From: Mucisphaera calidilacus
GTDB taxonomy: Bacteria; Planctomycetota; Phycisphaerae; Phycisphaerales; Phycisphaeraceae
Assembly: GCF_007748075.1 (NCBI RefSeq)
Contig: NZ_CP036280.1
Coordinates: 2,970,001 to 3,002,000, forward strand
DNA: 32,000 bases
Direction of reading: 5' to 3'
Every line of letters starts with the position of its first letter. The first letter of the stretch is position 1. The notes beneath the pieces were generated by a model. The model ran no database searches, was not told the origin of the DNA, and was given only the letters and a program-made list of their open reading frames with translations. Made by a program: the position numbers and the translations under genes. This document shows positions 5,106 to 30,829 of this stretch, one piece after another.

Positions 5106-5508
5106 CGAAGAAGCCCTCCCAGACGTCCGCAGGCAATTCAGAATCCAGGTCTTCGGCCACCCCCGATGCGCGACCAGCTGCGTCAATCATCGCATCCCGT
5201 GCATCACGGCAGCCCGGATCGTCGGCGGGATAGACGCCTCTACAGGCCTCCTCAAAACACCAAACCGCCTGTCGAAAGGCACCCATCGCTTCATCGAGCT
5301 GGGCGGCAGCATCATCTTGGCCCCTCAACTCCAGCCAGATGATGATCCCCTTCGCCTCATCGCGCAGTCGGTCGGCCCACATCCGGTGCTCGACTGTGTC
5401 CCGCCAGAGATCTTCTCCGCGTGCTGAGGCACACCACGCGTTGATGTTCTCCATCAACACCAGTAGAGGCCATTGCGAAATATCGGGGGTTTCAGGCGAG
5501 TCTGGCAT
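5098..5508 (-). CDS. Hypothetical small acidic protein (136 aa)
   Basis: ATG-initiated ORF starting 6 nt after the stop of the upstream gene and overlapping the downstream gene. It is rich in D/E/W residues. I recognise no family. Confidence 0.55.
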   Translation of the reverse strand: MPDSPETPDISQWPLLVLMENINAWCASARGEDLWRDTVEHRMWADRLRDEAKGIIIWLELRGQDDAAAQLDEAMGAFRQAVWCFEEACRGVYPADDPGCRDARDAMIDAAGRASGVAEDLDSELPADVWEGFFDA

Positions 5509-6249: not shown

Positions 6250-6394
6250 TATTCTCAATCATGGCGATCAGCGCGAGCCATCAGCCAAGTGGAACGACGT
6301 CACGGACAACGGATCAAACCTAACTCATCCATCATCTGTCAGATACGCAATTGTGAGAGGCGGCTTGTTGTCTTTACCAGGCCCTCCGGGTTCC

Positions 6395-9523: not shown

Positions 9524-9573
9524 TCATCCAGGATAACCGGGGTGTGACCTGATGATGGCGCGGATGTGATGCG

Positions 9574-16845
<7,272 letters not shown>

Positions 16846-17025
16846 GCCGACACTCTAACTATTGTGTTGCCAAAGAGCTAGAACGTTTCATCCGCGAACC
16901 TGTGTGTCTCGTCCTGATTCATCGTGACATCCTAGCGTCACAATCATCTAAGTCCGTCGGACACAACAACTTGACGAAGCCGCGAACCCGCTCATACACA
17001 TCGGCCTGCTTCGGGTTCGCGGCCC
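16846..17025 (-). promoter_or_regulatory. CRISPR leader (about 180 bp, lower GC) between the cas2 stop and the first repeat
   Basis: It sits next to the perfectly conserved end of the array and immediately downstream of cas2. It is visibly more AT-rich than its flanks. It contains a truncated repeat-like fragment, gtttcatccgcgaacc, at 16885-16900. Confidence 0.65.
16979..17023 (-). terminator. 12-bp perfect-stem hairpin directly after the cas2 stop codon
   Basis: GCCGCGAACCCG (16979-16990) pairs with CGGGTTCGCGGC (17012-17023) around a 21-nt loop. On the minus-strand RNA it is followed by uucgucaaguuguugugu. The loop is large, so the terminator call is tentative. Confidence 0.4.
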
Positions 17026-17316
17026 CTAGACGATGAGCGGGGCGTCGGGATCGGAAGACTGGTCCCGGCCGACGTGTTCGACCCTGCCATGCCAATGTTT
17101 GCCCAGGTTATAGAACCGCAGGCTGTCCGTCTTTGGGTTGATCAGGTCGGTCAGTGCGGCCTTAAGCCGTGTGTACTGGCCTGGGTCGAGTTTGCACTCG
17201 AACACGGAGGCCTGGACACGCTGGCCCCAATCGAGGCAGGCCTTGGCGACACGGCGAAGACGGCGTTTGCCGCCCTCTGCCGAGGTCGAGACGTCGTAGG
17301 TGATCAGGATGTGCAC
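17026..17316 (-). CDS. cas2: CRISPR-associated endoribonuclease Cas2
   Basis: 96 aa with a GTG start: HILITYDVSTSAEGGKRRLRRVAKACLDWGQRVQASVFEC...DSLRFY. This is the typical Cas2 ferredoxin-fold signature. It is the last gene of the operon and starts 2 nt after the cas1 stop. Confidence 0.95.
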   Translation of the reverse strand: MHILITYDVSTSAEGGKRRLRRVAKACLDWGQRVQASVFECKLDPGQYTRLKAALTDLINPKTDSLRFYNLGKHWHGRVEHVGRDQSSDPDAPLIV

Positions 17317-17318
17317 GT

Positions 17319-18353
17319 CTATCTCCAGATGAAGGCGGGGTAAGTGTCCAGTTCGCCACGCAGCACGCGGCTGAGCAGACGCGCCTGCAGGTGAATGAGC
17401 AGGCCAACCGTGGTCGATTCCTGCAGGTAGGGGTGTTGGATCGTCTCCTGCTTGCGGTTCTGGTAGGCGGCCAGGACGGTGCGGCGAGTCTGGTCGGTGA
17501 ACCGGATCGCCCCGCCTTCGATGGCCTCAAAGTCCTTGCGGGTGAGTTGTCTGCGGTTGATCAGGCTGAGGGCAAGACGGTCGCAGAGGAAGCTGCGAAG
17601 CTCTTCCATCAGGTCCAGAGCGAGAGACGGCCGTCCCGGGCGGTCACGGTGCAGGAAGCCAACAGCGGGGTCGAGGCCGCACGCCTCGCAGGCAGAGCGG
17701 GCGTCGTGACCGAGCATGGCGTAGAGGAAGCTGAGGATGCAGTTGAAGCGGTCGCGGGGCGGACGCTTTGAGCGTCCTTGCATGATGAAAGCCTCCCGGT
17801 CCTCACTCTTGATTGTCACGAGGTTGCTTAGCACAGCGAAGTAGGCGTTGGCGGCTTCACCCTCGATCCCCCGCAGGTGATCGAGGCTCTCGGCGGAGAG
17901 GGCGGCTTCGGCGTTCGGGGCCATGCGAGCGCAGGCGGCGGCGAGTCGTCCTTCGGCGTCGCCATGGTCACGGATCCCGCGCATCAGGGTGGTTCGGCTG
18001 TTGGCTATCTTGGCGGCGACCATCGGCCCGGCGATGGTCAGGCAGCGCGCATCATCATCGGCGGCCCGGTACTGGTCGCGGCGGAGCAGGACGTTGCCCG
18101 GCGTAAAGCCGGTCACGCGGGCCTGCAGCCTGCCGGTGCCGCTGAGGAAGGAGACGGCGACGCCCGCTTCGGCGCAGAGGGTGAGGACGGCGGTCGAGGC
18201 GTTGATGCGTCCGAAGCAGACGACGCCTCCGATGGTGTGGATTGGCACGCGTAGTTTCGTTTCGTCGTCGACGCAGACGAGGATGTTCTGGCCTTCTTTG
18301 CGCAGCCAGGTGCCGTCCGTCTGGACGAAGAGCGTGTTGAGGTGGTGTTTCAC
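17319..18353 (-). CDS. cas1: CRISPR-associated integrase Cas1 (type I-C)
   Basis: The track ORF runs to 18470, but the GTG at 18353 (VKHHLNTLFVQTDGTWLRKEGQNILV) overlaps the cas4 stop as GTGA. It gives about 344 aa with the usual Cas1 N-terminus. The family signature LNTLYV...G is conserved. Confidence 0.93.
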   Translation of the reverse strand: MKHHLNTLFVQTDGTWLRKEGQNILVCVDDETKLRVPIHTIGGVVCFGRINASTAVLTLCAEAGVAVSFLSGTGRLQARVTGFTPGNVLLRRDQYRAADDDARCLTIAGPMVAAKIANSRTTLMRGIRDHGDAEGRLAAACARMAPNAEAALSAESLDHLRGIEGEAANAYFAVLSNLVTIKSEDREAFIMQGRSKRPPRDRFNCILSFLYAMLGHDARSACEACGLDPAVGFLHRDRPGRPSLALDLMEELRSFLCDRLALSLINRRQLTRKDFEAIEGGAIRFTDQTRRTVLAAYQNRKQETIQHPYLQESTTVGLLIHLQARLLSRVLRGELDTYPAFIWR

Positions 18354-19027
18354 GGCGAGCCCTCCGTATCGAGACTGATGCGGAGCGAGCGGATCAGGTA
18401 CTGCCCCGGTCGGCGGCTGAGGCCCGTGGCGGCGGGCATGCAGAGGTGGAGGAGTGAACAGTTCCTGCACTTCGGCTCTTGTTTCGCGGCGGGGACGGTG
18501 TTCGTTTCAAGGTAGCCGCGGACCTCGTCGACGGTTCGCTCGACTACCTTTCGTAGATGGGCGTCGATGGTGACTGTCTCGCGTCGGCGGACAGCGTGAT
18601 AAAAGAGTTCCCCCTTCGGAACCTCCACTCCGAGCATCTCTTCGAGGCAGATGGCCTGAGCGGCGAGTTGAACGCGGTCGTGATCGAGACGTTTCGGGTT
18701 ACCGCGTTTGTGCTCCACAGGCCGCGGCGGCCCGGCGGGACAGCCTTCCGAGTCCAACGGGAACTCGACGACATCAGCACGGCCCGTCAGCCCGAGCCGC
18801 CGGTGGACCAGGGGCATTGCGCGGACGCAACGCACCCCGTGATCCTCGACGGCCCGGGTGCGGTGGCCGGGCGTATCCGATCGCTCGTGAAGCACCTTGC
18901 CTTCGCTCGTGAGCCGGTTCTCGGCCCATAGCCCGTCGACGTGGATCAGTGCGCACTGACGCGGGCAGAAAAGGTAGTGCTGCAACGCCGAGATCGGGAT
19001 CAGGTCTTCGTCGGCGTAGCCGGCCAC
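18350..19027 (-). CDS. cas4: CRISPR-associated exonuclease Cas4 (RecB-like, Fe-S cluster cysteines)
   Basis: 225 aa with a GTG start. It has ISALQHYLFCPRQCAL near the N-terminus and CRNCSLLHLC near the C-terminus, the four-Cys Cas4 pattern. It also has a DVVE...HKRG PD-(D/E)XK core. Confidence 0.93.
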   Translation of the reverse strand: MAGYADEDLIPISALQHYLFCPRQCALIHVDGLWAENRLTSEGKVLHERSDTPGHRTRAVEDHGVRCVRAMPLVHRRLGLTGRADVVEFPLDSEGCPAGPPRPVEHKRGNPKRLDHDRVQLAAQAICLEEMLGVEVPKGELFYHAVRRRETVTIDAHLRKVVERTVDEVRGYLETNTVPAAKQEPKCRNCSLLHLCMPAATGLSRRPGQYLIRSLRISLDTEGSP

Positions 19028-19029
19028 GA

Positions 19030-19938
19030 TCAGGGCTCGACCCAGGTCTCCGCCGTGACGCCTTGCGGCAGGTCGTCGAGTCTTGTCTCGAGGGTGTAGT
19101 CCTCAAAGGCTCGCGCCGGCCGGTTCTCGTCACGCTTCGACGGCTTGAGCTTGTAATCCACGCGGCTCAGCAACTGGTCGGCACGGGCGTTGCCAAGCGA
19201 CGAGTCGTGCTTGAAGGCGAAGCAGTGTCGAGGCCTCATCTGTCCGCGGGCGGCGGAGTGGTCGATCTCGAACATCATGTTGAGAGCACGCTTGAGCAGC
19301 TCGAGGTCCTCCTCAGAGAAGCCGGTGCCGTGACGCTCGGGGTCGGCGAGGTGCGGGCTGATGTAGCCGTGTACCCGGTAGAGGCCGTACGGGATGGTGA
19401 ACTTACGGCCCATGGTGCGCTCCTTCTCAAGATCTTTCTCGTTGGTCACAGCGCAGCGCGTGACGCTGTGCTCAAGGGTGATCAGCGGGTCGACGGAGCG
19501 GGCGAAGCCGAGCTGGACCGGGCCGCGGACTTGCCCGCAGTTGATCTCGGTGCTCATAACGGCTCCGAAGGTTCGAATGTCGAAGAAGTTTTGGCACATC
19601 CAGGCGGTCAGTTCGCGTGCTTTGGCCTGGTCTTTGGGCAGTTTCTTTTTTTCGGGCTTGAGCTTGAGTGCCTCGTAGGCCCGTGTGTGTTGCCCGTTGA
19701 GTACAGCCTTTTCCTTGACGTAGATCTCGTGGGGCGGTTGTTCGCCGAACTCGACGCCTACGAAGTTTCGGATCTTGCGTTTGAGGCAGACGTCGGTCAC
19801 GAGCCCCTGCCCGGTCTCGGGGTCGATGCGAGGGAGGTTGCCGGCGTCAGGATCGCCGTTAGGGTTACCGTCGAGGACATCGAAGAAGTAAACGAAGTCG
19901 TAGCGGTTGGTGATGGCGGTATCGGTGGCGGTGGTCAT
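19030..19938 (-). CDS. cas7: Cascade backbone subunit Cas7c (Csd2)
   Basis: 302 aa beginning [49 protein letters not shown], the hallmark Csd2 N-terminus. Its ATG overlaps the cas8c stop as ATGA. Confidence 0.95.
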
Positions 19939-20312
19939 TCTGAGGTCTCCTCGGAAACAGGGGTTTCGGATTTCTTAGTAAACAGGTCCTGACGCTGGTG
20001 GTAATAGCCGATCTGGAAGAGGCCCTGCTCTTCCAGCTTGAGCTGCTTCGGGAAGGTCTCGAGATGCGAGCAGACCTCCTGAATCAGCTTCTCACGGTTC
20101 GTCTTGAAGCCTGGGTCGAGCTTGGCGAGGTGATGCTGGCTCAGCCTGAGCAGTCTGGGGAAGACCGCTGCCGGCGTCGCCGAGGCGCTGCTGAAATAGC
20201 CTTCACGAATCGTTCTGTTGGTTCCGGGCAGAGCGTCGGTCTGGGTTTTCTCCAGAACCGCAAAGAGTCTGCCCAACTGGTAGGGGCCTGGCCCGTCGGG
20301 ATTCAGTGACAC
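19935..20312 (-). CDS. cas11c: Putative Cas11c small subunit, translated from an internal in-frame start within cas8c (125 aa)
   Basis: An in-frame GTG at 20312-20310 is preceded by a perfect AGGAGG (20323-20318) with 5-nt spacing, embedded in codons Q-E-V-P-V. The product begins [24 protein letters not shown] and is helical. Internal translation of Cas11 from the 3' part of cas8c is experimentally established for type I-C systems. Confidence 0.55.
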
Positions 20313-21785
20313 GGGAACCTCCTGAAATCTGCCGCCGGGACCCGCGAGGACCCTTCTGCGGCGGGTGATGCAGGCCTTGACGATCGCGGCCCGCGTGTGG
20401 GTGATCACGCCATCTGTCCGCACCCTGCGAACGATGGCTTCGAGAAGTGACTGGGGGTAAGGCCCGCCTGAGAAGACGGACCGTGCGACCTCGCCGGCGA
20501 GTTTGTGGGCGATGGCCTTCGCGTCCGGTTTGGGGGGGGTGCCGTCGTGCCGTGCCGTGGCCTGCAGCACACGAAAGATGGTCATAGGCCGCCCCTGTTC
20601 ACGTGGAGGGACGGGGAGCAGCCTGGCGTCGGCGTGGTGCTGTGCGACACGTTCGAGCATGTCACGCAGCGGGCCTGACCACCAGAAGCGGACGCTCAGG
20701 CGAGCGGCGTTGGGTGAGAGCCCGAGCACGTGGAACCCCTCGTCCACCCCGTCGAGGTCGGGCAACTCGCCTCGAGTGAGCTTCTGAATCGCCGTCTTGA
20801 GACGTTCGCGGTCTGCCGCGTCTTCGGCAGCAACCGCGTCATGATCCTCGCTGTCCTCGTCGAAGGTGTTGAAGAATCGAGCAAAGGCGGCCTTGGCCAT
20901 CACGTCCTCGGCGACTTTTGCTTCCGGGCTGTCGACCCACCAGACTGCCGTGGTGTCGCCGATCTGTTCGACACGATCACGATCCGCAAGGAGGCGTTTG
21001 AGCACCGTGCAGTACTTGAAGGCCTCTTCTTGACTGACAGGGGCGTTGTGCCCCTGCTTCTTGCCGTAACTCTCCGAAGCCTCGCTGTTGAACGAGACGA
21101 TGGTGGCGCCTGCGCTTTGTGCCCCCCAGACGCCCTGAATCTTCGGCTCGTGGAGCCGCGCGATGGTCCTGGGCAACCCTGAAATCAGTGACTGTGCGTG
21201 CTGTTCCGTGCTGTCCTCTGCGCCGGACGGCTGAGCCTGTAGCGTTCGCTGGTACCAGCCGTCGACACCGCGTCTTTGGTGGACGTAACCACGCTCGCCA
21301 TCCAGACGAAACAGACCGAAGGATGACAGGTAGGCACAAGTCGCCTCATCGGGCTCGAACGCTACAGAATCCCACGTCTCTAGGAAGCGGCAGACCGCGT
21401 CGAATCCTTCGTCATTGATCTCCTTGCGCAAGTCCAGGTGATGATCTCGGTAGGCCTCGAAGCTGGCACGGGTACGCTCGGGTTTGGGGTCGTCCGCTTT
21501 CCACCCCAGCAGGTAGGCGGCGTTGTCCCAGAGCAGGCAGGGATTCAGGCCAGAGCCGGACGGTTTCGCCTGTCCCGCTACACGAACCTGGCGTGCGAGC
21601 AGCTTCTGCTTGCCGCCAGTCGTCTCCACGGGTACACGAGCGTCTGCGATCTCGACCAGCTTTCCACTGGGATTGAGAACCACACAGAAACTGATCTTCT
21701 GCAGGCTGTAGCCGAAAGGCACGACCTCCGCTTCCGGGTCGGCAACGAGGCGGTCGTAGTAATCAATGAGTGAGGGGAGAATCAC
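19935..21785 (-). CDS. cas8c: Cascade large subunit Cas8c (Csd1)
   Basis: 616 aa with a GTG start overlapping the cas5 stop as GTGA. The N-terminus [45 protein letters not shown] matches the Csd1 family pattern. Confidence 0.95.
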
Positions 21786-22504
21786 GCGAGCCTCCGTTCC
21801 TGATCGATGTCACGGATCACGCCGTCACGCAGCACGGCCTTGAAGAAGTGAGGCGTCCGGTCCGAAGGGTGATCGATGTCCCACAGCATGTAGCCGAGGT
21901 CACGCTCACCCGAGAGCGAGGCCCGATCGGCCTGCGCAATCACCGGGTAAGGCTCCGTGGTCCAGTCCGCTGGCAAGGGTTCCGACGGCGCGGGTACCGT
22001 GGTCTCCGGATCAACCCAGGCGAAGAATGCCTCGTGCTCCCTGCGTCCGAGATACGGGCGGTGGAAGCACTGCCCGGAGTCTGCCCGCCGCTGGAACATC
22101 CCCAGGTGCTTGCCCGCGTTGTCGCTGCCCGAGAGCGTCTCGAACCGCGCCTCGATGATGTAGTGCACGTCCCTCAGCACCTGCGCCGCGAACTGCTGAC
22201 GATCCTCGTCGGCGTAGAGCGCAATCGCGCCGGATCCCTTTTTCATCGCTGAGCCCACAGCCCCCTTGGCCGGAATCTTTGAGGCGACGCCATTGGTCCG
22301 AAGACTCATGAACCGGATCGGGCTGAGTACGTGGATCGCCGTGATGACCCAGCGGATCTCCGGTTTCCAGTAGATCGCTTCGACGATCCCCCGGGCCGCC
22401 GAGGGCGTCATGACGTCGTAGCTCACCGCTTCGACTTTCATCTCGGGCCGCGCGAAGCACGCCGTAGGCCCCCATACACGAAGACGAACACCATGCTGTG
22501 CCAT
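21782..22504 (-). CDS. cas5: Cas5d (Cas5c), pre-crRNA-processing Cascade subunit
   Basis: 240 aa beginning VRLRVWGPTACFARPEMKVEAVSYDVMTPSAARGIVEAIYWKPEIRWVI, a textbook Cas5d N-terminus. A strong GAAGGAGGTG SD sits upstream. Its ATG overlaps the cas3 stop by 1 nt. Confidence 0.95.
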   Translation of the reverse strand: MAQHGVRLRVWGPTACFARPEMKVEAVSYDVMTPSAARGIVEAIYWKPEIRWVITAIHVLSPIRFMSLRTNGVASKIPAKGAVGSAMKKGSGAIALYADEDRQQFAAQVLRDVHYIIEARFETLSGSDNAGKHLGMFQRRADSGQCFHRPYLGRREHEAFFAWVDPETTVPAPSEPLPADWTTEPYPVIAQADRASLSGERDLGYMLWDIDHPSDRTPHFFKAVLRDGVIRDIDQERRLA

Positions 22505-24789
22505 CAGACACCTCCTTCAATTAGCCACTCAGGATTCATGCCGGCACCGGGATGCAGCCCGAGTACCGGGTCATAAGCTTGTTGATACTTCAGGATGTAG
22601 ATCCCCCTGGCCATGGGCGGTTCTTCGATCACCCCGTCCGCCAGCATCGACTTCAAGGCGTGGCTGCGCACCTGAACCGCCAGACGCTGACACCGTCGCA
22701 TGAGCGAGTGATCCGCCGGGTACTTCAAGCTCCGAAGCTCATCAACCAGCAACCGGCCAACATCGTTCCATGGCACCACGACCGGCGTCGTGCTGTCGGT
22801 GATCAATTGATACCGCTCCGCCGCGGTCCGGAAATTCAGAACCATGTTCGACCCGTCAAAGCTGAAACAGCTCATCACCGGGCCCTTCACGCCATTCCGG
22901 TCACGTGCGCCGTGGTCCCACCGGTCTTGATTCTGCCAGTAGTGCTCGCGGAAATAGGCTTCGATGGCCCTAGGGCTGAGCAGGTCCTTGTGCTGGCGCA
23001 TCACCGCTCGCGCGTCGTCTGCTGCCTGTCTCGCGTAGGCTGGCGGCTGTTCGCCGGTGTCGAAGACCACCACACGCCCCGGCTCCGGCAGCTTCCCTTC
23101 ACGGTTGCATCGGCCGGAGGCTTGAGCGATCGAGTCGAGGCCAGCGATCGCGCGGTAGACCACCGGGAAGTCGATGTCCACACCCGCTTCGACCAGGCTG
23201 GTGCTGACGACCCGACAGGGTTGCTCAGCTTCGAGGCGCTCTCGGATCTGCTGCAAGACCGACGTCCGATGCTCGGCGCAGAGGTCTGTCGTCAGGAAGA
23301 AACAGGATGCGTCATCGTCTTCTTTGGTGAGACGCTCCACCAGCTGCTTATAGAGTTCGCGTGCCTGCTTCTTTGTGTGCACAACGCAGAGCACACGATC
23401 AAGGTCAGCAAGCTCCATGGCCAGGGCGTCCTGAGTCAAGGTCCGTACAGGCTCGATCGTGACACGCCGTAATGCCTGAGCCAGCGTCTTCGGTTCGGGG
23501 ATGATCTCGCGCACGCCCTCGAGCCCGATCTCGAATTCGTCCTGTCGCCAGTGAATGGCTGGTTGCGTCGCGGTGCAGAGCACGACCGTGCAGCCGTAGT
23601 TCTGCACCAACTCGTTGAGCGCCATCAGTGTCGGCTTCAGCAGGTTGACCGGGAGCATCTGGGCTTCATCGAGAATGATCACGCTATCCGCAAGGTGATG
23701 CAGCTTCCGGCAGCGACCCGGCCTGTTGTGGAACAGCGACTCGAACATCTGAACGTTGGTCGTCACAATCAGCGGGGCATCCCAGTTCTCACTCGCGAGC
23801 CGGGACCACGTGTCCTCCTCAGAGGGCTCAAAGTTCGCGTGATGCTCCAACACCGCCCCCTCCCCCGCCGAAGCAAGGGCACCTCGGAAGACTTCGGCGT
23901 TCTGCTCAATAATGCTCGTGTAGGGGATGGCGTAGATCACCCGCCTCAGGCCGTGTCGCGTTGCGTGTTCGAGGCCGAACGCCAAAGACGAGAGCGTCTT
24001 GCCACCACCCGTCGGGACGGTCAGGCTGAACAAGCCCGGCTTCTCCTCGGCTCGAGTGCGGCAGGCCTGCAGGATCTGCTGGCGGTGCCTGTTGAGTTCC
24101 GTGGGGCTCGCATTGTTCGCCAGACCACTCAGGTGCTCATCCAGAGCACGTCGGAGGGCATTCAACGATGGTGGCATGACGCGACCCCTTCTTAAGGCAC
24201 GTTCAGGCGACATAAACCACTCGGTCGCGAGGAAGTCGGCATCCACCAGCGCGGAGAAAGTCATTCGCACCAGAAACGCCAACTGGAATGCCTTGTCGTC
24301 GCGTCCCTTGCTGATGTGCTGCAGGGGCGGCAGCTCCGGGACTTCCAGTTCCAGCAGCTCTCTCGGTGCATACGGTGCCGTGAGATCCTGCTTCCGCCTC
24401 AGCCGGTCCACGAGCTCCTGATAGTCCGGCATCCCGCCATGGTGCCCCGCAATCGCCTGAGCCAGAAGTGTTCCGAAAGGTCGTTGTTTCTCGGCCAGCA
24501 AGGCACCGAAACTCGAGTGGTCAACCCGCGTGGGTGCCTGCGCACGGTCTTCATCTGTGGCCTCAAGGAGATAGTCCTGATAGCCATCAGCATACTTGCC
24601 AAGATCATGCGTCAGGGCCAGATACTCCCCCCAGGCCGAGGTCCGGAAGATCTCGGCCGCTGCCTGGGCACCCGGAAAACAACCCTCTATCCCGTAGGCG
24701 ACACGCTTGAGATGCTCGAGTACCGGCTCCCAGCCATCCTCCGGCCGTACACCTTCCTTCGTATGTGCGTAGCAGTTGCGTTGTCTCAC
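22504..24789 (-). CDS. cas3: Cas3 HD-nuclease/helicase
   Basis: 761 aa with a GTG start and a GAAGG SD 7 nt upstream. HD-domain motifs are YAHT...LALTHDLGKY...DHSSFG...IAGHHGG. Helicase motifs are TVPTGGGKT (Walker A), VIILDEAQ (motif II) and a Cas3 C-terminal domain. Confidence 0.95.
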   Translation of the reverse strand: MRQRNCYAHTKEGVRPEDGWEPVLEHLKRVAYGIEGCFPGAQAAAEIFRTSAWGEYLALTHDLGKYADGYQDYLLEATDEDRAQAPTRVDHSSFGALLAEKQRPFGTLLAQAIAGHHGGMPDYQELVDRLRRKQDLTAPYAPRELLELEVPELPPLQHISKGRDDKAFQLAFLVRMTFSALVDADFLATEWFMSPERALRRGRVMPPSLNALRRALDEHLSGLANNASPTELNRHRQQILQACRTRAEEKPGLFSLTVPTGGGKTLSSLAFGLEHATRHGLRRVIYAIPYTSIIEQNAEVFRGALASAGEGAVLEHHANFEPSEEDTWSRLASENWDAPLIVTTNVQMFESLFHNRPGRCRKLHHLADSVIILDEAQMLPVNLLKPTLMALNELVQNYGCTVVLCTATQPAIHWRQDEFEIGLEGVREIIPEPKTLAQALRRVTIEPVRTLTQDALAMELADLDRVLCVVHTKKQARELYKQLVERLTKEDDDASCFFLTTDLCAEHRTSVLQQIRERLEAEQPCRVVSTSLVEAGVDIDFPVVYRAIAGLDSIAQASGRCNREGKLPEPGRVVVFDTGEQPPAYARQAADDARAVMRQHKDLLSPRAIEAYFREHYWQNQDRWDHGARDRNGVKGPVMSCFSFDGSNMVLNFRTAAERYQLITDSTTPVVVPWNDVGRLLVDELRSLKYPADHSLMRRCQRLAVQVRSHALKSMLADGVIEEPPMARGIYILKYQQAYDPVLGLHPGAGMNPEWLIEGGV

Positions 24790-25117
24790 GGCGTCAACCT
24801 TCTAGCTTCCAAGTTCATTTGTTCTCACGGCGTCAGGTCGACGTCTCTCTATTCGAGTTTCGACCGAACCCGGCGTCTTCGAGGAAGGTCCTCAGCCTAC
24901 TCCGCATCCTCCTCTGATCACGCAGGGTGATCGGGCGGCCGCGTTGCCTGGCCAGCCGCGCAAGACGGCGGACGCGGGCCTCAGCGAATCGCCGGGCCCG
25001 GTCACGCCGCCCCTCTCCCTCCCCCCGGAAGAGGGGAACCCTCAGCTCACAACCGTCCATGCCGAATCTCCGCCGATCACGTCCCTGTGACCATCGACCC
25101 GAGTCTCGCGATCCCAC

Positions 25118-25133
25118 TGACCACCCCCTGTCA
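25118..25133. promoter_or_regulatory. 16-bp motif copy B, TGACCACCCCCTGTCA, in the cas3 upstream intergenic region
   Basis: It matches motif copy A at 26174-26189 (TGACCACCCCCCGTCA) at 15 of 16 positions. It has inverted TGAC...GTCA ends and lies 25 nt after the nuclease stop codon. Confidence 0.4.
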
Positions 25134-25157
25134 CCGGGCTGTGCTGTTGCCCGGGCT

Positions 25158-26132
25158 TCATGGACCTGTCTCTCCCTCAGACCCCTCGGCCATCACGCTC
25201 TGAAGCGCCTCGTTGTGCTCACGTGCCCAGTAAAGCAGATGAACAGCGGCTCGCATGCCACGCTCCGCGGCCTGGGCGCTCTGATCGAAGGGCTTCGCGA
25301 AGTCGATGATCTCCTGCTGAATGCGGACCGCTGCAGATTTTTGCGTCCGAACGACCTGCATCCCCTCCTCCAGACAGGGCTCCAGCCTTGACGCGACCTC
25401 ACCCACCCGTCGCCCCAGCCCATTGAGCTGCAGGTCAATCGCCCCGGAGCAACACTTATGAATGATGTGGGTCCCCGCGGGCCTGTTCAGAGGACGAAAA
25501 TGAATGAAGCTTGAAGTCGCCGGCTTGCCTCCGGGGTGTGGCATTTCCAACTCAGGCGTGACACGAGACGCCACTTGCCAGTACCCCTTCCAGAATTTGG
25601 TGACGGATTGATCCTCGATCATGTTGTATCCCACGTGGGCCTTCTCGATCGCCGTCTTGAGCAGATAGACCTTGTACGCCGTGCGCAGCGACGGATCGTT
25701 GTTCTCCAGCCAGTCGACGATGGACTCGTAACTAAGGGTCTCATCGAACTCCGTCTCCGAGCACCCCGCGAGGTAATCGTCCGGAGCGATCAGCACCGTC
25801 GTGCAGGTGCGTAGTTCGTCGCGATCGAGGTAGTTCGCGGATCGCTCGGCGTAGCGAGCGGCCTGATCCTTCTGGAACGAGGCGTCAACCTTGTTCTCGA
25901 TCAGGATCTTGTGCTTGTCGCCATGCTCAAAGCGCAGCAGAAGTTCGAGATCCGATTCGCCGTTCGACTGTGTGATCGATCGACCGATACGCAGCAGTTC
26001 ACAGGTTCCGTGCAGCCTGGTCGTTCGTTGTACGAACCACTGAAGGAAGTCCTGCGATGCCGCAAGTTCTTCAAGGAGCAGCAGGTCGATATCCCGCTCG
26101 CAGACACCCGAAACCCTGAACTCAGTCGTCAT
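25158..26132 (-). CDS. PD-(D/E)XK-superfamily nuclease-like protein (324 aa), C-terminal half of unknown function
   Basis: ERDIDLLLLEEL...GESDLELLLRFEHGDKHKILIENKVDASFQKDQAARY gives the E...D...ExK core plus the IENK-x(n)-Q-x-x-RY pattern seen in PDDEXK families. The track start at 26141 is GTG. The ATG at 26132 has a GAGGTG SD 6 nt upstream. I did not recognise the roughly 170 residues after the core. Confidence 0.7.
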   Translation of the reverse strand: MTTEFRVSGVCERDIDLLLLEELAASQDFLQWFVQRTTRLHGTCELLRIGRSITQSNGESDLELLLRFEHGDKHKILIENKVDASFQKDQAARYAERSANYLDRDELRTCTTVLIAPDDYLAGCSETEFDETLSYESIVDWLENNDPSLRTAYKVYLLKTAIEKAHVGYNMIEDQSVTKFWKGYWQVASRVTPELEMPHPGGKPATSSFIHFRPLNRPAGTHIIHKCCSGAIDLQLNGLGRRVGEVASRLEPCLEEGMQVVRTQKSAAVRIQQEIIDFAKPFDQSAQAAERGMRAAVHLLYWAREHNEALQSVMAEGSEGETGP

Positions 26133-26145
26133 GCAAATCACCTCG

Positions 26146-26155
26146 TGTCATGACA
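26146..26155. promoter_or_regulatory. Perfect 10-bp palindrome TGTCATGACA abutting the ribosome-binding site of the PD-(D/E)XK gene
   Basis: Read directly from cctcgTGTCATGACAgcagg. It lies in the 49-58 nt gap between the WYL gene stop and the nuclease start. Confidence 0.3.
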
Positions 26156-26173
26156 GCAGGTTATCTGCCGCCT

Positions 26174-26189
26174 TGACCACCCCCCGTCA
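26174..26189. promoter_or_regulatory. 16-bp motif copy A, TGACCACCCCCCGTCA, immediately after the WYL gene stop and upstream of the PD-(D/E)XK gene
   Basis: See copy B at 25118-25133. Copy A begins 2 nt from the WYL stop codon at 26191-26193. Confidence 0.4.
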
Positions 26190-26190
26190 G

Positions 26191-27177
26191 TCAGGACCTG
26201 TACTGTTCGGCGGTTCTCTCTGCGAGATCGCGTAACCGTTCAACCAGATCATCCGGTTGCTTCACCTTCGCGTGCGGGCCATAACCCAGCACCCACCAGA
26301 CAATCTCATCGAGCCCATCGACGGTGCACCGGAAGGTCAGCGAACCGTCCTCGTGCTCCTCGATCTCCTGCGTGCGGTGCCAGGTTGTCTCACTCACCGC
26401 GTCGGCCACCGTCGCGTCAAAGAGGATCTCGACCGCATACGTCGTCTCGCCACGGATCATCCGCCAGGCGTTGCCGCGGAACGACGTCAACGAGAAGTTC
26501 TCTGGGCGGGTAAAGGCCGTCTCGGTCGGTCGAGCCTCCGTGAAGCGGTTGAGTTTGAGCCGCCTGACCGCGTCTCTGCCGCTGTGGTGCCCTACGACGT
26601 ACCACGCCCGCTGATCGAAGGAGAGCGCGTAGGGGCGCAGACGAAACGCCTCCCCGCCGTTGTCGCTGTCGGTCGTTGCCGATTCGTAAGTGCACACCAC
26701 CTCGACGCTGCGCCGGATCGCGCCCTGCATCACGGTGAAGACGTCCTTGACCGCTCCCTCATCCGGGCCGGTCGCGGGCAGACGGATCTCGATGTGCGGC
26801 TCAAGACCCTCAACCTCGCCGAGCACCGACTCGGGAAGCTGGCTCCTGAGCTTCTCAATCGCAGAGGCGGCGGGGGAGGTCATCGCGATCTGGTCCTGGC
26901 CTGCGATCTGACCCGCCAGAGCCACTAACGCCAGCGACTCGGGAGCCGTCATGTGAACAGGCGGCAGGAAGAAGTCCTTGCGGATCCGGTAGGTCCTGGC
27001 CTCTTCGTCGAAGAAATAGGGGATGCTGAGGTCACTGATGACCTTGAGGTCGCGGTAGATCGTGCGTACTTCAACATCACATCGCTGGGCAAGGTCATCG
27101 GCGTTGCCCGCATTGCCCTGCTGCATGAGCATGATCTCGAGCAGCAGGCGGTGAACCTTGGAATAGTCGGCGGGCAT
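26191..27177 (-). CDS. WYL-domain transcriptional regulator (HTH + WYL + WCX architecture; BrxR/CapW/PafBC-like)
   Basis: 328 aa. The N-terminal winged HTH is KVHRLLLEIMLMQQG...DDLAQRCDVEVRTIYRDLKVISDLSIPYFFDEEARTYRI. The WYL domain is FRLRPYALSFDQRAWYVVGHHSGRDAVRRLKLNRFTEA. The C-terminal WCX-like region is EDGSLTFRCTVDGLDEIVWWVLGYGPHAKVKQP. The ATG has a GGGAG SD 7 nt upstream. Confidence 0.9.
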   Translation of the reverse strand: MPADYSKVHRLLLEIMLMQQGNAGNADDLAQRCDVEVRTIYRDLKVISDLSIPYFFDEEARTYRIRKDFFLPPVHMTAPESLALVALAGQIAGQDQIAMTSPAASAIEKLRSQLPESVLGEVEGLEPHIEIRLPATGPDEGAVKDVFTVMQGAIRRSVEVVCTYESATTDSDNGGEAFRLRPYALSFDQRAWYVVGHHSGRDAVRRLKLNRFTEARPTETAFTRPENFSLTSFRGNAWRMIRGETTYAVEILFDATVADAVSETTWHRTQEIEEHEDGSLTFRCTVDGLDEIVWWVLGYGPHAKVKQPDDLVERLRDLAERTAEQYRS

Positions 27178-27249
27178 GGAAGCACTCCCAGGAACTCATG
27201 GGATCATAACGTCTGAACAAATCGCCGTTTGCCTTCCTTGCTGAGAGCG

Positions 27250-29130
27250 TCACAGTCTTCGTCGTCGCTGCAAGCCCATGATCGCAACGAGCACTGGTAT
27301 CGAGGGCTCGGGCACCGCTGTACCGTCAAAACCGAAGTTCGCGGCAAGGATCGAGAGGTCGTTCAGGTTGACGATGCCGTTGAGGTCGAAGTCGCCATCG
27401 GCCCAGCCGCCAGTCTGGCCGAATGAAGCGGCGAGTTGCGAGAGATCGAGCAGGTCGACGCGTCGGTCGAGGTTGGCATCGCCGAAGGTGGTGCCGAGAA
27501 TCGAGGTCACGAGGTGATCGAGATCGTATTGGCTGACCTGCCCGTCGGTGTCGAGATCACCGCTCGAGGCGCAGGTGGCGTAGATGAAGCTGTCGATGTC
27601 GTTGGCGTTGATGACGCCGTCGCCGTTGAGGTCTCCGGGCTCGGGCCAGCAACCTTCTTCGGCCCAGACGAGTTCGGGCAGGGCGAAGTCGTGCTCCATG
27701 CTCAGTGGCATGCGGTAGACGCGGGTGGCATCGGCGTTGGCGAAGTAGAGGTGCGAGGTTGAGAAGGTGTCCGGGTCGCCGTCGGCCCAGAGAAAGGCGA
27801 AGGCGTCCTGCGCCTTGTTGACATTGCGGACGTAGGTGTGGTGTGTTGCGGCATCGGGCAGGGGTTGTCGGGAGAGTTGCCAGGTCTGGCCGAGGTCGTC
27901 GGACTGCCAGTAACCCAGGTCGCCACCGGTTCGCCAGGGGCTGGAGCCGTCGAGATAGGGTCCGAGGATCGACCATATCTCGCTCCCATCCTCCGCCTGC
28001 GTGATGACCATCGATCCCTGATCGTAGTTGTGATCTGTGGTCAGCACGTCACGGATGTCCCACGTGCTTCCGGTCCATCGTGCGGTGTGGAGCGTGCGGT
28101 CGAAGCGGTCTGGCCCGGGCGAGTAGTCGTCGGCGGTCAGATAGACCAGCACGGGGTTGCCCTGGGTGTCGAAGGTCGTCTGCTTGAGATAGACGTTGAG
28201 TCCGGCGCTCGCGTACTCGGCGACCAGAGCGGGGTTGATTGTGTCGGTGAGAGGCGTCTGTACCGTGGCGCCGTTGGCGGCGGTCCATGTCCGGCCGGCA
28301 TCGGGTGTCTGGAGGTAGTAGAGGTTGGTGCGGGCGTTGAGTCCGCTGCCGTTGGGGCTGCTGGCCGGGTGCATGTTGAATGCGGTGCCGACGACGTTGC
28401 CGTACTGACTCGATACCTGATATTGCCCCTTCTCGAGGTTCGACAGCAGCGGGCGGTGATGATCCGGGAAGAGGTTGAGATTCCACTTGTGGTCCCAGGT
28501 GATGCCATCGGGCGAGGTGTTCCAGTAAAGGTTTCGTTCGGCGCCGTCGGGCGGGAGGTCATAGTGGGTATGGAGGAACAGGACGCCTTGGCCGGGGATG
28601 GTGTAGGGGTTGCCGTAGGAGAAGTTAGCGCCGCTGCGGGTGAGGCTGAGTGTGGTGGTGAAGGCAGATATGTCCCATGGCTGCTCGCTGATCAGGAAGC
28701 TCGAATCCCTGCTGAAGCCATGCGCGTTGTCTGCGACGAATAGGCGGCCGTCCTCAAGGATGGTCATGGTCGGGTTGTTGTGGGCGTCGTCGCCGCCGGG
28801 GACGGTGAGCACGCGGGGTCTGGCAAGCAGTCCGGTGGTGTGGTCGTAGTAGCTGATCGCGCTGGCCAGTCCGTCGGGCGAGTCGGAGCCGTAGACAAAG
28901 TAGGTACGGTTGACCTGATGGGCGTAGGTGGCGAGGGTGCCGTGCTGCTGGGGGTAGGTGCCCAATCCCCCGGAGTACTTGTAGCCATAGGGGCCGGGTG
29001 TTCCCAGGCCGTACCAGATGCCCGCGTAGCCGGGAAGGGTGTTGTTCTCGGCGAGTGTGTTTGTCGAGAGCAGGGTGAGAAGGGTCAGAACACGTAGCGC
29101 AGCGATCGCGCGGGGGTTGCCTGAGTTCAT
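27250..29130 (-). CDS. Secreted BNR/sialidase-like beta-propeller protein with dockerin-like Ca-binding repeats and a PEP-CTERM sorting signal
   Basis: 626 aa. The signal peptide is MNSGNPRAIAALRVLTLLTLLSTNTLA. The long central region is rich in Trp, Tyr and Gly. Repeats include DLNGDGVINANDID, DLDTDGQVSQYDLD, DANLDRRVDLLDL and DFDLNGIVNLNDLS. The C-terminus VPEPSIPVLVAIMGLQRRRRL is a PEP motif followed by a TM helix and a basic tail. Confidence 0.85.
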   Translation of the reverse strand: MNSGNPRAIAALRVLTLLTLLSTNTLAENNTLPGYAGIWYGLGTPGPYGYKYSGGLGTYPQQHGTLATYAHQVNRTYFVYGSDSPDGLASAISYYDHTTGLLARPRVLTVPGGDDAHNNPTMTILEDGRLFVADNAHGFSRDSSFLISEQPWDISAFTTTLSLTRSGANFSYGNPYTIPGQGVLFLHTHYDLPPDGAERNLYWNTSPDGITWDHKWNLNLFPDHHRPLLSNLEKGQYQVSSQYGNVVGTAFNMHPASSPNGSGLNARTNLYYLQTPDAGRTWTAANGATVQTPLTDTINPALVAEYASAGLNVYLKQTTFDTQGNPVLVYLTADDYSPGPDRFDRTLHTARWTGSTWDIRDVLTTDHNYDQGSMVITQAEDGSEIWSILGPYLDGSSPWRTGGDLGYWQSDDLGQTWQLSRQPLPDAATHHTYVRNVNKAQDAFAFLWADGDPDTFSTSHLYFANADATRVYRMPLSMEHDFALPELVWAEEGCWPEPGDLNGDGVINANDIDSFIYATCASSGDLDTDGQVSQYDLDHLVTSILGTTFGDANLDRRVDLLDLSQLAASFGQTGGWADGDFDLNGIVNLNDLSILAANFGFDGTAVPEPSIPVLVAIMGLQRRRRL

Positions 29131-29217
29131 GGCAGCACCTCTCGGAACAGGGGGACCGGGATGTCACGGCCTCGACGCGGGGCCGCTGGGAATCAGGCTT
29201 CAAGCATGCGCATCGCA

Positions 29218-29235
29218 CTGACATCTACGTGTCAG
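29218..29235. promoter_or_regulatory. Inverted repeat CTGACA-N6-TGTCAG about 50 bp upstream of the HEPN-like gene
   Basis: Read directly: gcaCTGACAtctacgTGTCAGtcg, in the divergent intergenic region 29131-29287. Confidence 0.25.
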
Positions 29236-29287
29236 TCGATACCCGGTGATTGCTTGTTTTATGAATCAGATATGGGAGGATGCCGGC

Positions 29288-29959
29288 ATGACCACGACAG
29301 ACCCTGCGACCGTTCGTGAACTTCGGCGACGCTGGAAACCCAGGAAGAATGATCCGGCGATCAAGAGCCTTGGTATTCGGCTCCACCGCGCGTGGAGCTG
29401 GATGACACGGCTGGAGGAACTCGATGAGGTCGGCCTGTCGAGCGAGGATACGCACCTGATCTTCTCGTGGATCGCGCTCAACAGCCTCTATGGCACTTGG
29501 GATCCGGTCAGGCAAGAGCCGGAAGCTGACAGAGCATCACTCGATCGTTTCAATGGGCGGTTGTTCACGCTCGATCAGGACAAGCGTCTTGAGTCGATGC
29601 TTGTCGAGCACAAGAAGCTGGTAAAAGCGATCGTCAGTGACGAGCATCTGAGCAAGTACTTCTGGCGTGACCCCGGCGAGGGTGAAGCAAAACGGGCACG
29701 CTATGCCGGGAACAAGACCAACAGCCTCTACGTCGAGAAGCGTTACCCCGTCATCCTCGACATGGTTCTGCAGCGCGTCTATCTGGCTCGGTGCCAGCTG
29801 GTGCACGGAGCCGCGACCTACAAAAGCCGGCTCAACCGCACCGCACTGCGCCGGACGGGGAGGTTCCTGCACCTCTACCTGATCGAGGCGAGCCTGATCC
29901 TGATCGATCACGCGGGAGCGGACGGCTGGGATGATCTGTGCTATCCGCCGACCCAGTGA
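29288..29959 (+). CDS. Hypothetical all-helical protein with an Rx4H (HEPN-like) motif; putative HEPN-domain RNase
   Basis: The track ORF starts at 29246, but the ATG at 29288 has a GGGAGGA SD 7 nt upstream. The motif YLARCQLVHGAATY (R182..H187 of the track ORF, nt 29789-29806) fits the HEPN consensus R-x4-H-G at the start of the last helix. The upstream helices (RLHRAWSWMTRLEEL, LIFSWIALNSLYG) fit a four-helix bundle. Family membership is not verified. Confidence 0.5.
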   Translation: MTTTDPATVRELRRRWKPRKNDPAIKSLGIRLHRAWSWMTRLEELDEVGLSSEDTHLIFSWIALNSLYGTWDPVRQEPEADRASLDRFNGRLFTLDQDKRLESMLVEHKKLVKAIVSDEHLSKYFWRDPGEGEAKRARYAGNKTNSLYVEKRYPVILDMVLQRVYLARCQLVHGAATYKSRLNRTALRRTGRFLHLYLIEASLILIDHAGADGWDDLCYPPTQ

Positions 29960-29968
29960 GACGAGTAC

Positions 29969-30829
29969 ATGGCGCGACGAACCTCACAATCGGATCAGAA
30001 CCTCGATGATCTGCTGGATGTTCTGTGTCTTGTGCCCTGGTGGATGGGCCCACCACTGATCTTCCTGGTCTGGTGGCTGTTACACGATCTCGTGCCGACG
30101 CTGGCGACCGACTACTGGCCCGGGCGAGACCACGAGCTTGCGAAGCCCGGCATCCAGTTGCTGACCACGATGTCGGTGACCTTCTCGCCTGTTATCGCGG
30201 GGGTGGTTGGTCTTGTCTGGGTGGTAGCGTTGCTTAAGAAGATGGGGCGCAGCCGTCGGCTGGAGCGGCAAACGGGGATCGAGAGCATCCGTTCGCTGTC
30301 GTGGCGAGAGTTCGAGTTGCTGCTGGGCGAAGCCTTCCGTCGCCAGCGTTACATGGTCGAGGATACGGGCGGCGTCGCGGACGGCGGCGTCGATCTGATT
30401 CTCTCCAGACGTGGGCAGGTGACGCTGGTGCAGGCCAAGCAATGGAAGGCGAGGAAAGTAGGCGTCAAGATCGTACGTGAGTTGTTCGGCGTCCAGATCT
30501 CTCGCCAAGCGCACGATGCCATCGTCGTGACCAGCGGCGACTACACGCGTGAGGCCAGGCAATTCGCTGCGTCGAACGGTGTCAAGCTCGTCGATGGTCC
30601 TGTGCTCGAGCGGATGATCGCTGACGTGCAACGCTCCGGCCGCGTTCAGCCAACACCCAAAACACGGTCATCGTCAACCAAGACCGCGACGGCTGCCGCT
30701 AACCCCCGATGCCCGAAATGCGGAAAACCCATGGTGCAACGTGTCGCACAACGAGGAGCCAACGCCGGGCAGGCCTTCTGGGGTTGTAGCGGCTATCCCA
30801 GCTGCCGGGCCACACGGAGGGTGGGGTAG
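29969..30829 (+). CDS. Membrane-anchored Mrr-like (Mrr_cat) restriction endonuclease with a C-terminal topoisomerase-type C4 zinc ribbon
   Basis: 286 aa. There are two N-terminal TM helices (LCLVPWWMGPPLIFLVWWLL; VTFSPVIAGVVGLVWVVALL). The Mrr_cat core is SWREFELLLGEAFRRQRYMVEDTG...DGGVDLIL...VTLVQAKQWK...VGVKIVRELFG...AIVVTSGDYTREARQFA...VKLVDG. The zinc ribbon is CPKCGKPMVQR...FWGCSGYPSCRAT. It starts 9 nt after the upstream stop. Confidence 0.85.
   Translation: MARRTSQSDQNLDDLLDVLCLVPWWMGPPLIFLVWWLLHDLVPTLATDYWPGRDHELAKPGIQLLTTMSVTFSPVIAGVVGLVWVVALLKKMGRSRRLERQTGIESIRSLSWREFELLLGEAFRRQRYMVEDTGGVADGGVDLILSRRGQVTLVQAKQWKARKVGVKIVRELFGVQISRQAHDAIVVTSGDYTREARQFAASNGVKLVDGPVLERMIADVQRSGRVQPTPKTRSSSTKTATAAANPRCPKCGKPMVQRVAQRGANAGQAFWGCSGYPSCRATRRVG

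Follow-up and report, generated by a model that had tools for sequence, protein, structure and literature searches.

A solo two-domain nuclease and a type I-C CRISPR-Cas locus apparently acquired beside a resident DriD-like WYL regulator in Mucisphaera calidilacus

WYL regulators and the Mucisphaera calidilacus locus

A close described counterpart of the WYL regulator considered here is DriD of Caulobacter crescentus, a 327-residue homodimer with the operator ATACGAC-N7-GTCGTAT (crystallized as ATACGACAGTTACTGTCGTAT); G2 and C4 of the site are recognized by Arg37 and Arg41, and C1 by Glu40 (PMC10853764). DriD is activated by single-stranded DNA (ssDNA) bound in its WYL-WCX pocket (PMC10853764), its sites overlap the −35 position of promoters that have no −35 element (PMC13004042), and its regulon includes the small protein didA and the endonuclease bapE (PMC10853764, PMC13004042). 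BrxR and CapW are repressors of defence islands that act through inverted-repeat boxes, and CapW senses ssDNA (PMC9122601, PMC11662680); WYL domains fused to Cas3 are also known (PMC4012209). We describe here a 32,000-nucleotide (nt) stretch of the Mucisphaera calidilacus genome, referred to as the window (contig NZ_CP036280.1, positions 2,970,001 to 3,002,000), in which a DriD-like WYL gene is followed by a gene for a two-domain nuclease and by a type I-C CRISPR-Cas locus. The WYL and nuclease proteins encoded there are 100% identical to proteins of M. calidilacus, a member of the Phycisphaerae (Planctomycetota). All coordinates are positions in the window, unless another locus is named.

On the minus strand the genes run from a BNR_4/dockerin gene through the WYL gene, the nuclease gene and a gene of 75 amino acids (aa) to cas3-cas5c-cas8c-cas7c-cas4-cas1-cas2, the CRISPR leader and the array. 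An initial annotation, made from the letters and open reading frames (ORFs) of the window, had placed a 328-aa HTH-WYL-WCX regulator and a 324-aa nuclease directly upstream of cas3, ∼50 nt apart. The regulator is found at 26191–27177 (−), with Pfam matches to WCX (1.8e-20), WYL (4.6e-11) and HTH_11/HTH_PafC. The nuclease, at 25158–26132 (−), carries all three motifs on which its assignment had rested (GESDLELLL, ILIENKVDA and QAARY) and scores above the cut-off for PDDEXK_4; 58 nt separate the WYL stop codon from its ATG. The 368-nt gap described between the nuclease stop and the cas3 GTG has the right length but is not empty, and the nuclease gene is not the immediate neighbor of cas3, since the 75-aa gene (24833–25060, −) lies inside the gap.

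We put at about even the chance that the nuclease is a solo, mobile enzyme directed against mobile elements, that it and the I-C locus were both inserted next to the resident DriD-like WYL gene, and that they share its operator-like boxes.

The nuclease family and its genomic neighborhoods

The nuclease gene begins with an ATG preceded by GAGG, giving 324 aa; an alternative GTG at 26141 would give 327 aa. The protein combines a PDDEXK_4-type N-terminal domain with an α/β C-terminal domain (residues ∼148–324). Against Pfam PDDEXK_4 (PF14281) it scores 31.7 bits, compared with a cut-off of 22.3, over residues 58–147, and the N-terminal half alone scores 33.9 bits. A database search returned 825 full-length homologs, mostly at 40%–46% identity. 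In an alignment of 40 of these, 38%–59% identical to the query, the invariant residues of the N-terminal domain are E12, R13, D14, D16, G58-E-S-D61, E79-x-K81, Q90, Y94 and R97. They include the catalytic D...(D/E)-x-K triad together with an upstream acidic residue (E12, D61, E79, K81), so that the D/ExK core proposed earlier is conserved throughout the alignment. The C-terminal domain also has invariant residues, namely G168, F180, W181, Y184, P200, H225, K226 and W302.

The AlphaFold2 (AF2) model of the full protein has a mean pLDDT of 93.2 and a pTM of 0.80. Its N-terminal domain shows the α-β-β-β-α-β core of restriction endonuclease-like folds, with helix 12–37, strands 44–51, 61–68 and 73–80, helix 90–104 and strand 109–116. 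The top PDB matches by Foldseek are EcoO109I, EndoMS/NucS, MspJI and Cap4, with probabilities of 0.9–1.0, although all are distant (E at least 1e-3). The C-terminal domain forms a module of a helix, three strands, a helix, two strands and a final helix. This C-terminal half of ∼170 aa had been called unrecognizable. Foldseek finds no close solved relative for it, but it is a conserved domain, with invariant residues family-wide and a fold modeled in isolation (residues 148–324) at a pLDDT of 95.5. Its best Foldseek matches are the double-stranded DNA-binding “double-wing” domain of T4 MotA and YbjN/T3SS-chaperone-like folds. An L035-encoded 320-aa protein with a faint YbjN match was considered as a paralog of the nuclease and rejected for want of any meaningful similarity.

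A phmmer search with the C-terminal domain against 1.84 billion representatives yielded 644 clusters (at 50% identity) with E ≤0.001, of which 324 have E ≤1e-10. The domain nearly always occupies residues ∼150–310 of proteins of ∼310–330 aa, and this near-constant position indicates that the two-domain architecture is fixed and the family small. The top match, P0361 (329 aa), is matched in two stretches, of which the better begins at residue 10, and could represent either an assembly artifact or a tandemly duplicated C-terminal domain without the nuclease domain. Searches of PDB sequences, NCBIfam and PHROG gave no match to the family, and a single relative was found in 2.9 million viral contigs. 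By its motifs and fold, the 324-aa protein appears to be an uncharacterized variant inside the PD-(D/E)XK/PDDEXK_4 group. It would cut DNA by the metal-dependent PD-(D/E)XK mechanism, with the C-terminal domain most likely recognizing the substrate or gating the nuclease.

Several known nuclease groups invite comparison. PDC-S26, a candidate single-gene system of ∼400 aa in PADLOC, resembles the nuclease in being a solo protein with a PDDEXK_4-type core and an IENK...QxxRY segment that occurs in defence islands; its C-terminal domain differs. Membership of PDC-S26 was rejected, the match being confined to the core (E 2e-6, residues 30–147 against profile positions 69–185 of 413). A genuine PDC-S26 protein, from locus L024, matches the PDC-S26 profiles over its full length at 1.8e-113, whereas most members of the nuclease family do not match them at all, and an hhalign comparison of the family with a genuine PDC-S26 member aligned 42 columns with 11% probability. 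In two unrelated defence islands, L024 and L029, a homolog of the nuclease lies 2.5–4 kb from another PDDEXK_4 gene, with BrxL within ∼7.5 kb. The other gene in L024 is the full-length PDC-S26 gene (L024:11513–12673, ∼2.5 kb from the homolog), and that in L029 (L029:3036–4127) matches PDC-S26 in part. MspJI, a type IV, modification-dependent enzyme, and Cap4 likewise join a PD-(D/E)XK domain to a second, recognition or sensor domain in a single polypeptide. In contrast to the nuclease, they have another domain order and another second domain, and they are weak matches, with E values of 1e-3 or above and TM scores up to 0.27. In the nuclease itself, neither SRA nor SAVED nor any other recognized sensor domain was detected.

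The remaining comparison, with Cas4, bears on the role of the nuclease. The initial annotation had raised the possibility that it is a WYL-controlled accessory effector of the I-C system. Such a dedicated accessory, a second Cas4-like enzyme of pre-spacer processing or interference co-transcribed with cas3, would fit the position of the gene near cas3 on the same strand, the lack of a predicted terminator on the coding strand between the WYL gene, the nuclease gene and cas3, and an ExK-x8-QxxxY arrangement that recalls RecB/Cas4 nucleases. However, the QxxxY-like motif after ExK is the only feature common to the nuclease and Cas4/RecB: there is no match to Cas4 or any other cas profile in Pfam or PADLOC, no invariant Cys quartet in the 40 aligned sequences, and Foldseek hits to Cas4-like chains have E values of at least 0.07. 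In addition, the operon already has its own Cas4c, and the conserved, unrelated small gene stands between the nuclease gene and cas3.

The distribution of the family argues in the same direction. We examined ∼30 contexts of nuclease homologs, comprising 22 loci of species-representative genomes and 8 metagenome contexts. The 22 loci span more than ten phyla, including a Methanophagales archaeon, and their taxa include Acidobacteriota, Cyanobacteria, Nitrospirota, Verrucomicrobiota, Campylobacterota, Lysobacterales, Chloroflexota, Patescibacteria and Planctomycetota. Cas genes or a CRISPR array accompany the nuclease homolog in none of the 22 genome loci and none of the 8 metagenome contexts; a CRISPR array scan of the nuclease loci found none outside the window, and tblastn of the window WYL and Cas proteins against the homolog loci returned nothing. 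A WYL profile (hidden Markov model, HMM), which recovered a 27%-identical WYL protein at 9e-48 as a positive control, detected a WYL gene only at the closest relative, ∼4.3 kb from its nuclease gene. This closest homolog (59% identity, locus L035) has no cas genes within 10 kb. Co-occurrence of nuclease homologs with cas or WYL genes, the check proposed with the annotation, is thus not enriched, and the reading of the nuclease as an I-C accessory fails on this ground. These contexts appear to refute, at the level of the family, a part in type I-C interference or adaptation, and we regard a dedicated accessory role as very improbable.

Within three genes of the homolog on either side, the 22 loci have 102 neighbors, none of whose Pfam families occurs at more than two loci; several neighbors have PADLOC defence matches. 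Defence islands surround the homolog in five of the eight metagenome contexts. Genes in these islands include BrxL, AbiE, Mrr, type I restriction-modification (RM), DarT, TIR and NERD, in combinations such as BrxL with AbiE, Mrr, HNH and PDC-S26; BrxL with a FokI-like nuclease and TIR; DarT with MqsRA; and type I RM with Mrr and NERD. The family does not correspond to a housekeeping family, a possibility that the annotation had left to be checked. On this distribution, the nuclease behaves as a horizontally mobile solo gene with a patchy occurrence. By analogy, it is most probably a one-gene innate nuclease against mobile elements, with a role that would be comparable to that of type IV restriction enzymes or the PDC-S26 candidates.

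A resident WYL module and two probable insertions

The order BNR_4 gene, WYL gene, palindrome and small gene is conserved in four Phycisphaeraceae genomes, represented by the window and the loci L035, L036 and L037. The window BNR_4 gene (27250–29130, −; Pfam) encodes a secreted BNR_4/dockerin protein and is the upstream neighbor of the WYL gene; a BNR_4 gene or one of its size also precedes WYL in the other three loci. The genes further downstream vary, with HNH, PARG and an HsdM methylase in L035, an ABC transporter in L036, and a PLD-helicase-DUF3427 gene, NERD and phage-like genes in L037. The small gene, which encodes an Arg-rich protein, is 62%–64% identical to ORFs immediately downstream of WYL in L036 and L035 (E 1e-17 and 3e-18). 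Its ortholog is a called gene in L036 and a weaker match in L037. Substitutions are in excess at third codon positions (63, compared with 38 and 35 at positions 1 and 2). No Pfam family matches the 75-aa protein, and the protein collection does not contain its exact sequence. It is uncovered here as a conserved gene between the nuclease gene and cas3.

The palindrome of this module, of the form TGAC-N8-GTCA and referred to below as a box, locates the insertion of the nuclease gene. A strong copy, TGACCACCCCCTGTCA on the plus strand (25118–25133; 22.1 bits), lies 24 nt past the nuclease stop codon; its orthologs in L035 and L036 are the boxes found there at the stop codon of the WYL gene. The 45 nt beyond it agree with the 45 nt beyond the L035 WYL-stop box at 25 positions (0 of 5000 shuffles) and with the L036 counterpart at 22 (p ∼0.01), whereas the spacer between the WYL and nuclease genes of the window does not match (p ∼0.2). 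Because the 3′ flank matches and the spacer does not, the nuclease gene would have been inserted between the WYL gene and the ancestral 3′ palindrome. The insertion appears to have duplicated the palindrome: a degenerate copy, TGACCACCCCCCGTCA on the plus strand (26174–26189), lies just past the WYL stop codon, and the nuclease gene is flanked by the direct repeat of 16 nt that this and the strong copy make up. An explanation of this repeat as a mere target-site duplication was dropped, since the palindrome is also present at other promoters and in three related genomes. In L035 the nuclease gene occupies another place, on the other side of BNR_4 and behind three opposite-strand genes that include the ortholog of the window HEPN gene (orf237).

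The far border of the second insertion is marked by a gene for a PLD-nuclease/SF2 helicase/DUF3427 protein (6395–9523, −; 1042 aa; Pfam), which starts ∼50 nt past the last, degenerate CRISPR repeat. Over 1037 aa it is 66% identical to L037:12201–15341, the gene that follows the small gene there. This orthology indicates an insertion of the I-C locus, of ∼15 kb, that separated the small gene from the helicase gene. The PLD-helicase is itself defence-like, and in L037 it is followed by NERD. At the near border an exact 13-nt direct repeat, TGACGCCGTGAGA on the minus strand, occurs at 24784–24796 and 24823–24835, the copies 39 nt apart; one holds the stop codon of the small gene and the other the GTG start of cas3. 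The repeat could have a regulatory function, or it could be a scar left at the junction when the cas locus was inserted.

Comparison of the four genomes indicates that the WYL gene is the resident and that the nuclease gene and the I-C locus are insertions. The initial annotation had described the regulator and nuclease as grafted onto the cas operon; the direction is the reverse, the WYL gene being syntenic in four genomes and the nuclease gene and I-C locus having come to it. It is tempting to go further and to see WYL operator palindromes as landing sites, with incoming defence genes recombining at or next to the boxes, because a duplicated box brackets the nuclease gene and the I-C locus lies directly behind a small gene preceded by a box. 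We hold this to be doubtful. If it were true, newly arrived defence genes would come automatically under an ssDNA-sensing switch, and the result would be an inducible, multi-layer island of HEPN protein, solo nuclease, CRISPR-Cas and PLD-helicase.

The inserted I-C system (17026–24789, −) is complete, and PADLOC assigns every cas gene to subtype I-C. Its seven genes, all on the minus strand, are cas3 (22504–24789, with its GTG start at 24789; Cas3c, 4.5e-216), cas5c (21782–22504; Cas5c, 2.7e-61), cas8c (19935–21785; Cas8c, 2.4e-139), cas7c (19030–19938; Cas7c, 8e-108), cas4 (18350–19027; Cas4c, 1e-78), cas1 (17319–18470; Cas1c, 2.7e-141) and cas2 (17026–17316; Cas2c, 2.5e-40). A leader of 180 nt is followed by the array (9573–16845, −; repeat GTCGCTCCCTTCGCGGGAGCGTGGATTGAAAC on the minus strand), which is very long, with ∼110 repeats; the last of these is degenerate (…GTGGATACTTAC).

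On the other side of BNR_4, and divergent from it, lies a gene for a HEPN-family protein (orf237; 29246–29959, +), for which NCBI gives a later start and 185 aa. Its homologs are named “HEPN domain-containing protein”; one of them, P0242 on the L035 contig, is 59% identical and syntenic. Within 29246–30829 (+) the HEPN-family gene is followed by one for a protein of the restriction-endonuclease fold (Mrr_cat) that ends in a topoisomerase-type zinc ribbon and is similar to ZorD and mREase_IV in PADLOC. Further defence-type genes are thus present across BNR_4. Toward the opposite end of the window are genes for a 779-aa primase-helicase-type protein with Prim-Pol, PriCT_1 and DUF3987 (1350–3689, −) and for a PRiA4_ORF3-like protein (5515–6258, −). 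Their content suggests an integrated mobile element beside the island.

The palindrome boxes and predicted WYL control

The WYL protein has 861 homologs, at 50%–70% identity across Phycisphaerae, and matches the PADLOC WYL model at 3e-34. It also matches the N-terminal part of the PADLOC model for Cas3c fusions (2.6e-30), such that the WYL and Cas3 proteins of the window jointly cover one Cas3c model (positions 7–316 and 326–1005, respectively). Matches in the PDB to DriD, PafBC and other WYL proteins have E values from 7e-10 to 3e-8, with DriD (8tp8) aligned over the full length at 3e-8. In this alignment DriD residues R37, E40 and R41 pair with R38, Y41 and R42 of the WYL protein encoded in the window. 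In the pocket, Y193 corresponds to Y192, the Tyr of the WYL motif, R205 to R204, K208 to R207 and L207 to W206. Both G2 and C4 of the half-site and the arginines that read them are kept relative to DriD, and base 1 and the residue that reads it both differ. That the WYL protein binds the TGAC-N8-GTCA boxes is thereby a well-founded inference.

A search for the exact pattern TGAC-N8-GTCA finds four boxes in the window, compared with 0.7 expected (0 of 100 shuffles reach four). There are five in L023, where 0.22 are expected (0 of 200 shuffles reach five), with a sixth in the extended L035, five in L036 and one in L037. In contrast, 446 kb of unrelated loci contain one, where base composition would predict ∼6. 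All copies lie between genes or over a stop codon, and the extended consensus is CCACTGACAG-N4-CTGTCAGTGG.

The boxes hold regular positions relative to the genes. The ATG of the small gene follows a box at a distance of 57 nt in the window, L035 and L036 and of 78 nt in L037; BNR_4 has a box upstream in three genomes, and the WYL gene has one in two. The divergent BNR_4/HEPN region of the window contains a strong copy, TGACATCTACGTGTCA (29219–29234; 22.8 bits), and the equivalent region of L035 contains two. A weak, box-like palindrome with an exact core, TGACATCCTAGCGTCA (16925–16940), is found in the CRISPR leader, ∼80 nt upstream of the first repeat. The nuclease ATG has a box upstream in both genomes that carry the gene, at 41 nt in the window and 45 nt in L035, and this, with the box before the small gene that leads into cas3, lends inferential support to the second suggestion of the initial annotation, a separate one-gene unit sharing its regulator with cas3. 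On the arrangement of boxes, the best-supported reading is that of distinct defence units under common WYL control.

The palindromes upstream of the other nuclease homologs all differ, and the idea that the box is a motif intrinsic to the nuclease gene was rejected for this reason. The sole box in the 446 kb of non-WYL loci (L018:5004–5019) lies 15 nt upstream of a nuclease homolog at a locus with no WYL gene, and was treated as chance. Several boxes are followed, after 8–10 nt, by an A/T-containing hexamer (GATACT, GATCAT, GAGACT or GATAAC); by analogy, this spacing is weak evidence for a DriD-like placement over the −35 position. A second element, TGCATGCTTCAGGC, occurs 9–10 nt downstream of boxes that precede secreted-protein genes (BNR_4, GDSL lipase), at ∼29185–29209 (−) in the window, ∼6303–6320 in L035, and ∼5272–5290 and ∼7944–7962 in L036. 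It is missing at the boxes before the small gene and the nuclease gene, a pattern that may reflect two promoter classes. In L035 a further strong box (14792–14807), in the divergent region between the PARG_cat_microb gene and the gene for the 320-aa protein mentioned above, suggests additional regulon members there. L036 has a second, shorter WYL-family gene upstream of BNR_4 (7182–7832; 216 aa; faint HTH_PafC plus WCX; 2.5e-61 against the WYL HMM), whose product might be a paralog that partners the other WYL protein, much as in the PafB/PafC pair.

The boxes might, however, not be WYL operators at all. Another factor could bind them, they could form RNA hairpins or terminators at gene ends, or they could be a locally repeated sequence family; the nuclease would then be an unregulated passenger that came by chance to lie between WYL and cas3. 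Several boxes overlap stop codons, boxes flank secreted-protein genes unconnected with defence, and the second WYL-like gene of L036 is nearby, all of which could be read in this way. Against it, the boxes lie within a few kb of WYL in all four genomes and are nearly absent from the 446 kb elsewhere, their spacing to the ATG is conserved (57 nt in three genomes for the small gene, 41–45 nt for the nuclease), the half-site is that predicted from DriD-type base-reading arginines (PMC10853764), and the stems are short and have no T-tract. We consider this explanation unlikely, at a level that still gives it some weight.

A different alternative keeps the regulator and changes the function of the nuclease, which would belong to a DriD-like DNA-damage regulon as a repair nuclease or as a BapE-like, damage-induced suicide endonuclease cutting self-DNA, without direct recognition of an anti-phage target. 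The DriD-like regulator speaks for this, as do the nuclease gene being preceded by a box in both genomes though differently placed, and the parallel between didA and bapE in the DriD regulon and the small gene and nuclease gene here, both behind boxes (PMC10853764, PMC13004042). The family itself is patchy, horizontally spread, often borne on islands and elsewhere found without WYL, which is atypical for repair, and we take a damage-response function to be improbable, without being negligible.

The reading that we prefer, a solo nuclease and an I-C locus under shared WYL control, has evidence against it as well. In 91 kb of WYL loci 13 sites reach 20 bits or more, and in 453 kb of other loci none exceeds 12.5 bits, but the weight matrix was trained on the sites it scores and this comparison is partly circular. 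The leader box (10.2 bits) falls within the background score range, and the box before the window nuclease gene is a weaker, degenerate copy (12.1 bits). A distance of 328 nt separates the strong box from cas3, which makes control of cas3 dependent on read-through from the small gene. Boxes of the same kind precede genes for secreted enzymes (BNR_4, GDSL lipase), and the regulator is to that extent not specific to defence; the palindromes could also belong to another factor or be RNA hairpins, as considered above. With respect to the nuclease, some homologs sit amid housekeeping genes with no defence neighbors (L027, L028), and the DNA-binding domain of MotA is a weak match for the C-terminal domain (E ∼0.02, TM at most 0.48).

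Considered together, these observations are compatible with a model in which the nuclease gene was inserted at an operator-like palindrome after the resident WYL gene and the I-C locus was inserted separately just downstream. By analogy with DriD, CapW and BrxR, the WYL dimer would sense ssDNA from phage replication or DNA damage. It would bind the boxes before the nuclease gene, the small gene and BNR_4/HEPN, and possibly that in the CRISPR leader, and change the transcription of a mixed regulon whose units are switched on together. Transcription of the small gene would run on through 46 nt into cas3, and the leader site might add control of the array. The action of WYL could be activating, as for DriD, or repressing, as for BrxR and CapW. 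The nuclease would act apart from Cascade, its PD-(D/E)XK domain cutting DNA and its C-terminal domain recognizing the substrate or gating the cut.

To our knowledge, the induction of type I CRISPR-Cas on infection is poorly understood except in a few models. The locus offers a tractable one, with a DriD-type, putatively ssDNA-sensing regulator and a predicted operator before a CRISPR-Cas operon and other defence genes, and it illustrates how defence genes may build up downstream of a resident regulator. The analysis also removes a tempting annotation of the 324-aa protein as a second nuclease of type I-C and defines instead a compact two-domain family, of ∼640 clusters at 50% identity and absent from PADLOC, as a candidate one-gene defence system.

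Compared with DriD, the window WYL protein has the same length, wHTH-WYL-WCX architecture and base-reading arginines, and the boxes predicted to be its operators share with the DriD operator a palindromic GACAG...CTGTC core. The half-site is TGAC with an 8-nt gap, rather than CGAC with a 7-nt gap, and the center is rich in GC, where that of DriD is rich in AT. Like the regulon of DriD, the one predicted here takes in the region of the regulator gene itself, a gene for a small protein and one for a nuclease; in contrast to that of DriD, it extends to secreted enzymes and to defence genes gained by horizontal transfer. As with BrxR, CapW and the type I-D repressor Sll7009, a WYL regulator heads a string of defence genes and boxes stand at more than one promoter. 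Unlike BrxR and CapW, the window WYL gene does not travel with one particular system, but is conserved in its lineage and syntenic with a non-defence BNR_4 gene, while the cargo downstream varies between genomes. By its gene order and boxes, the arrangement would represent a new instance of a WYL-controlled defence island.

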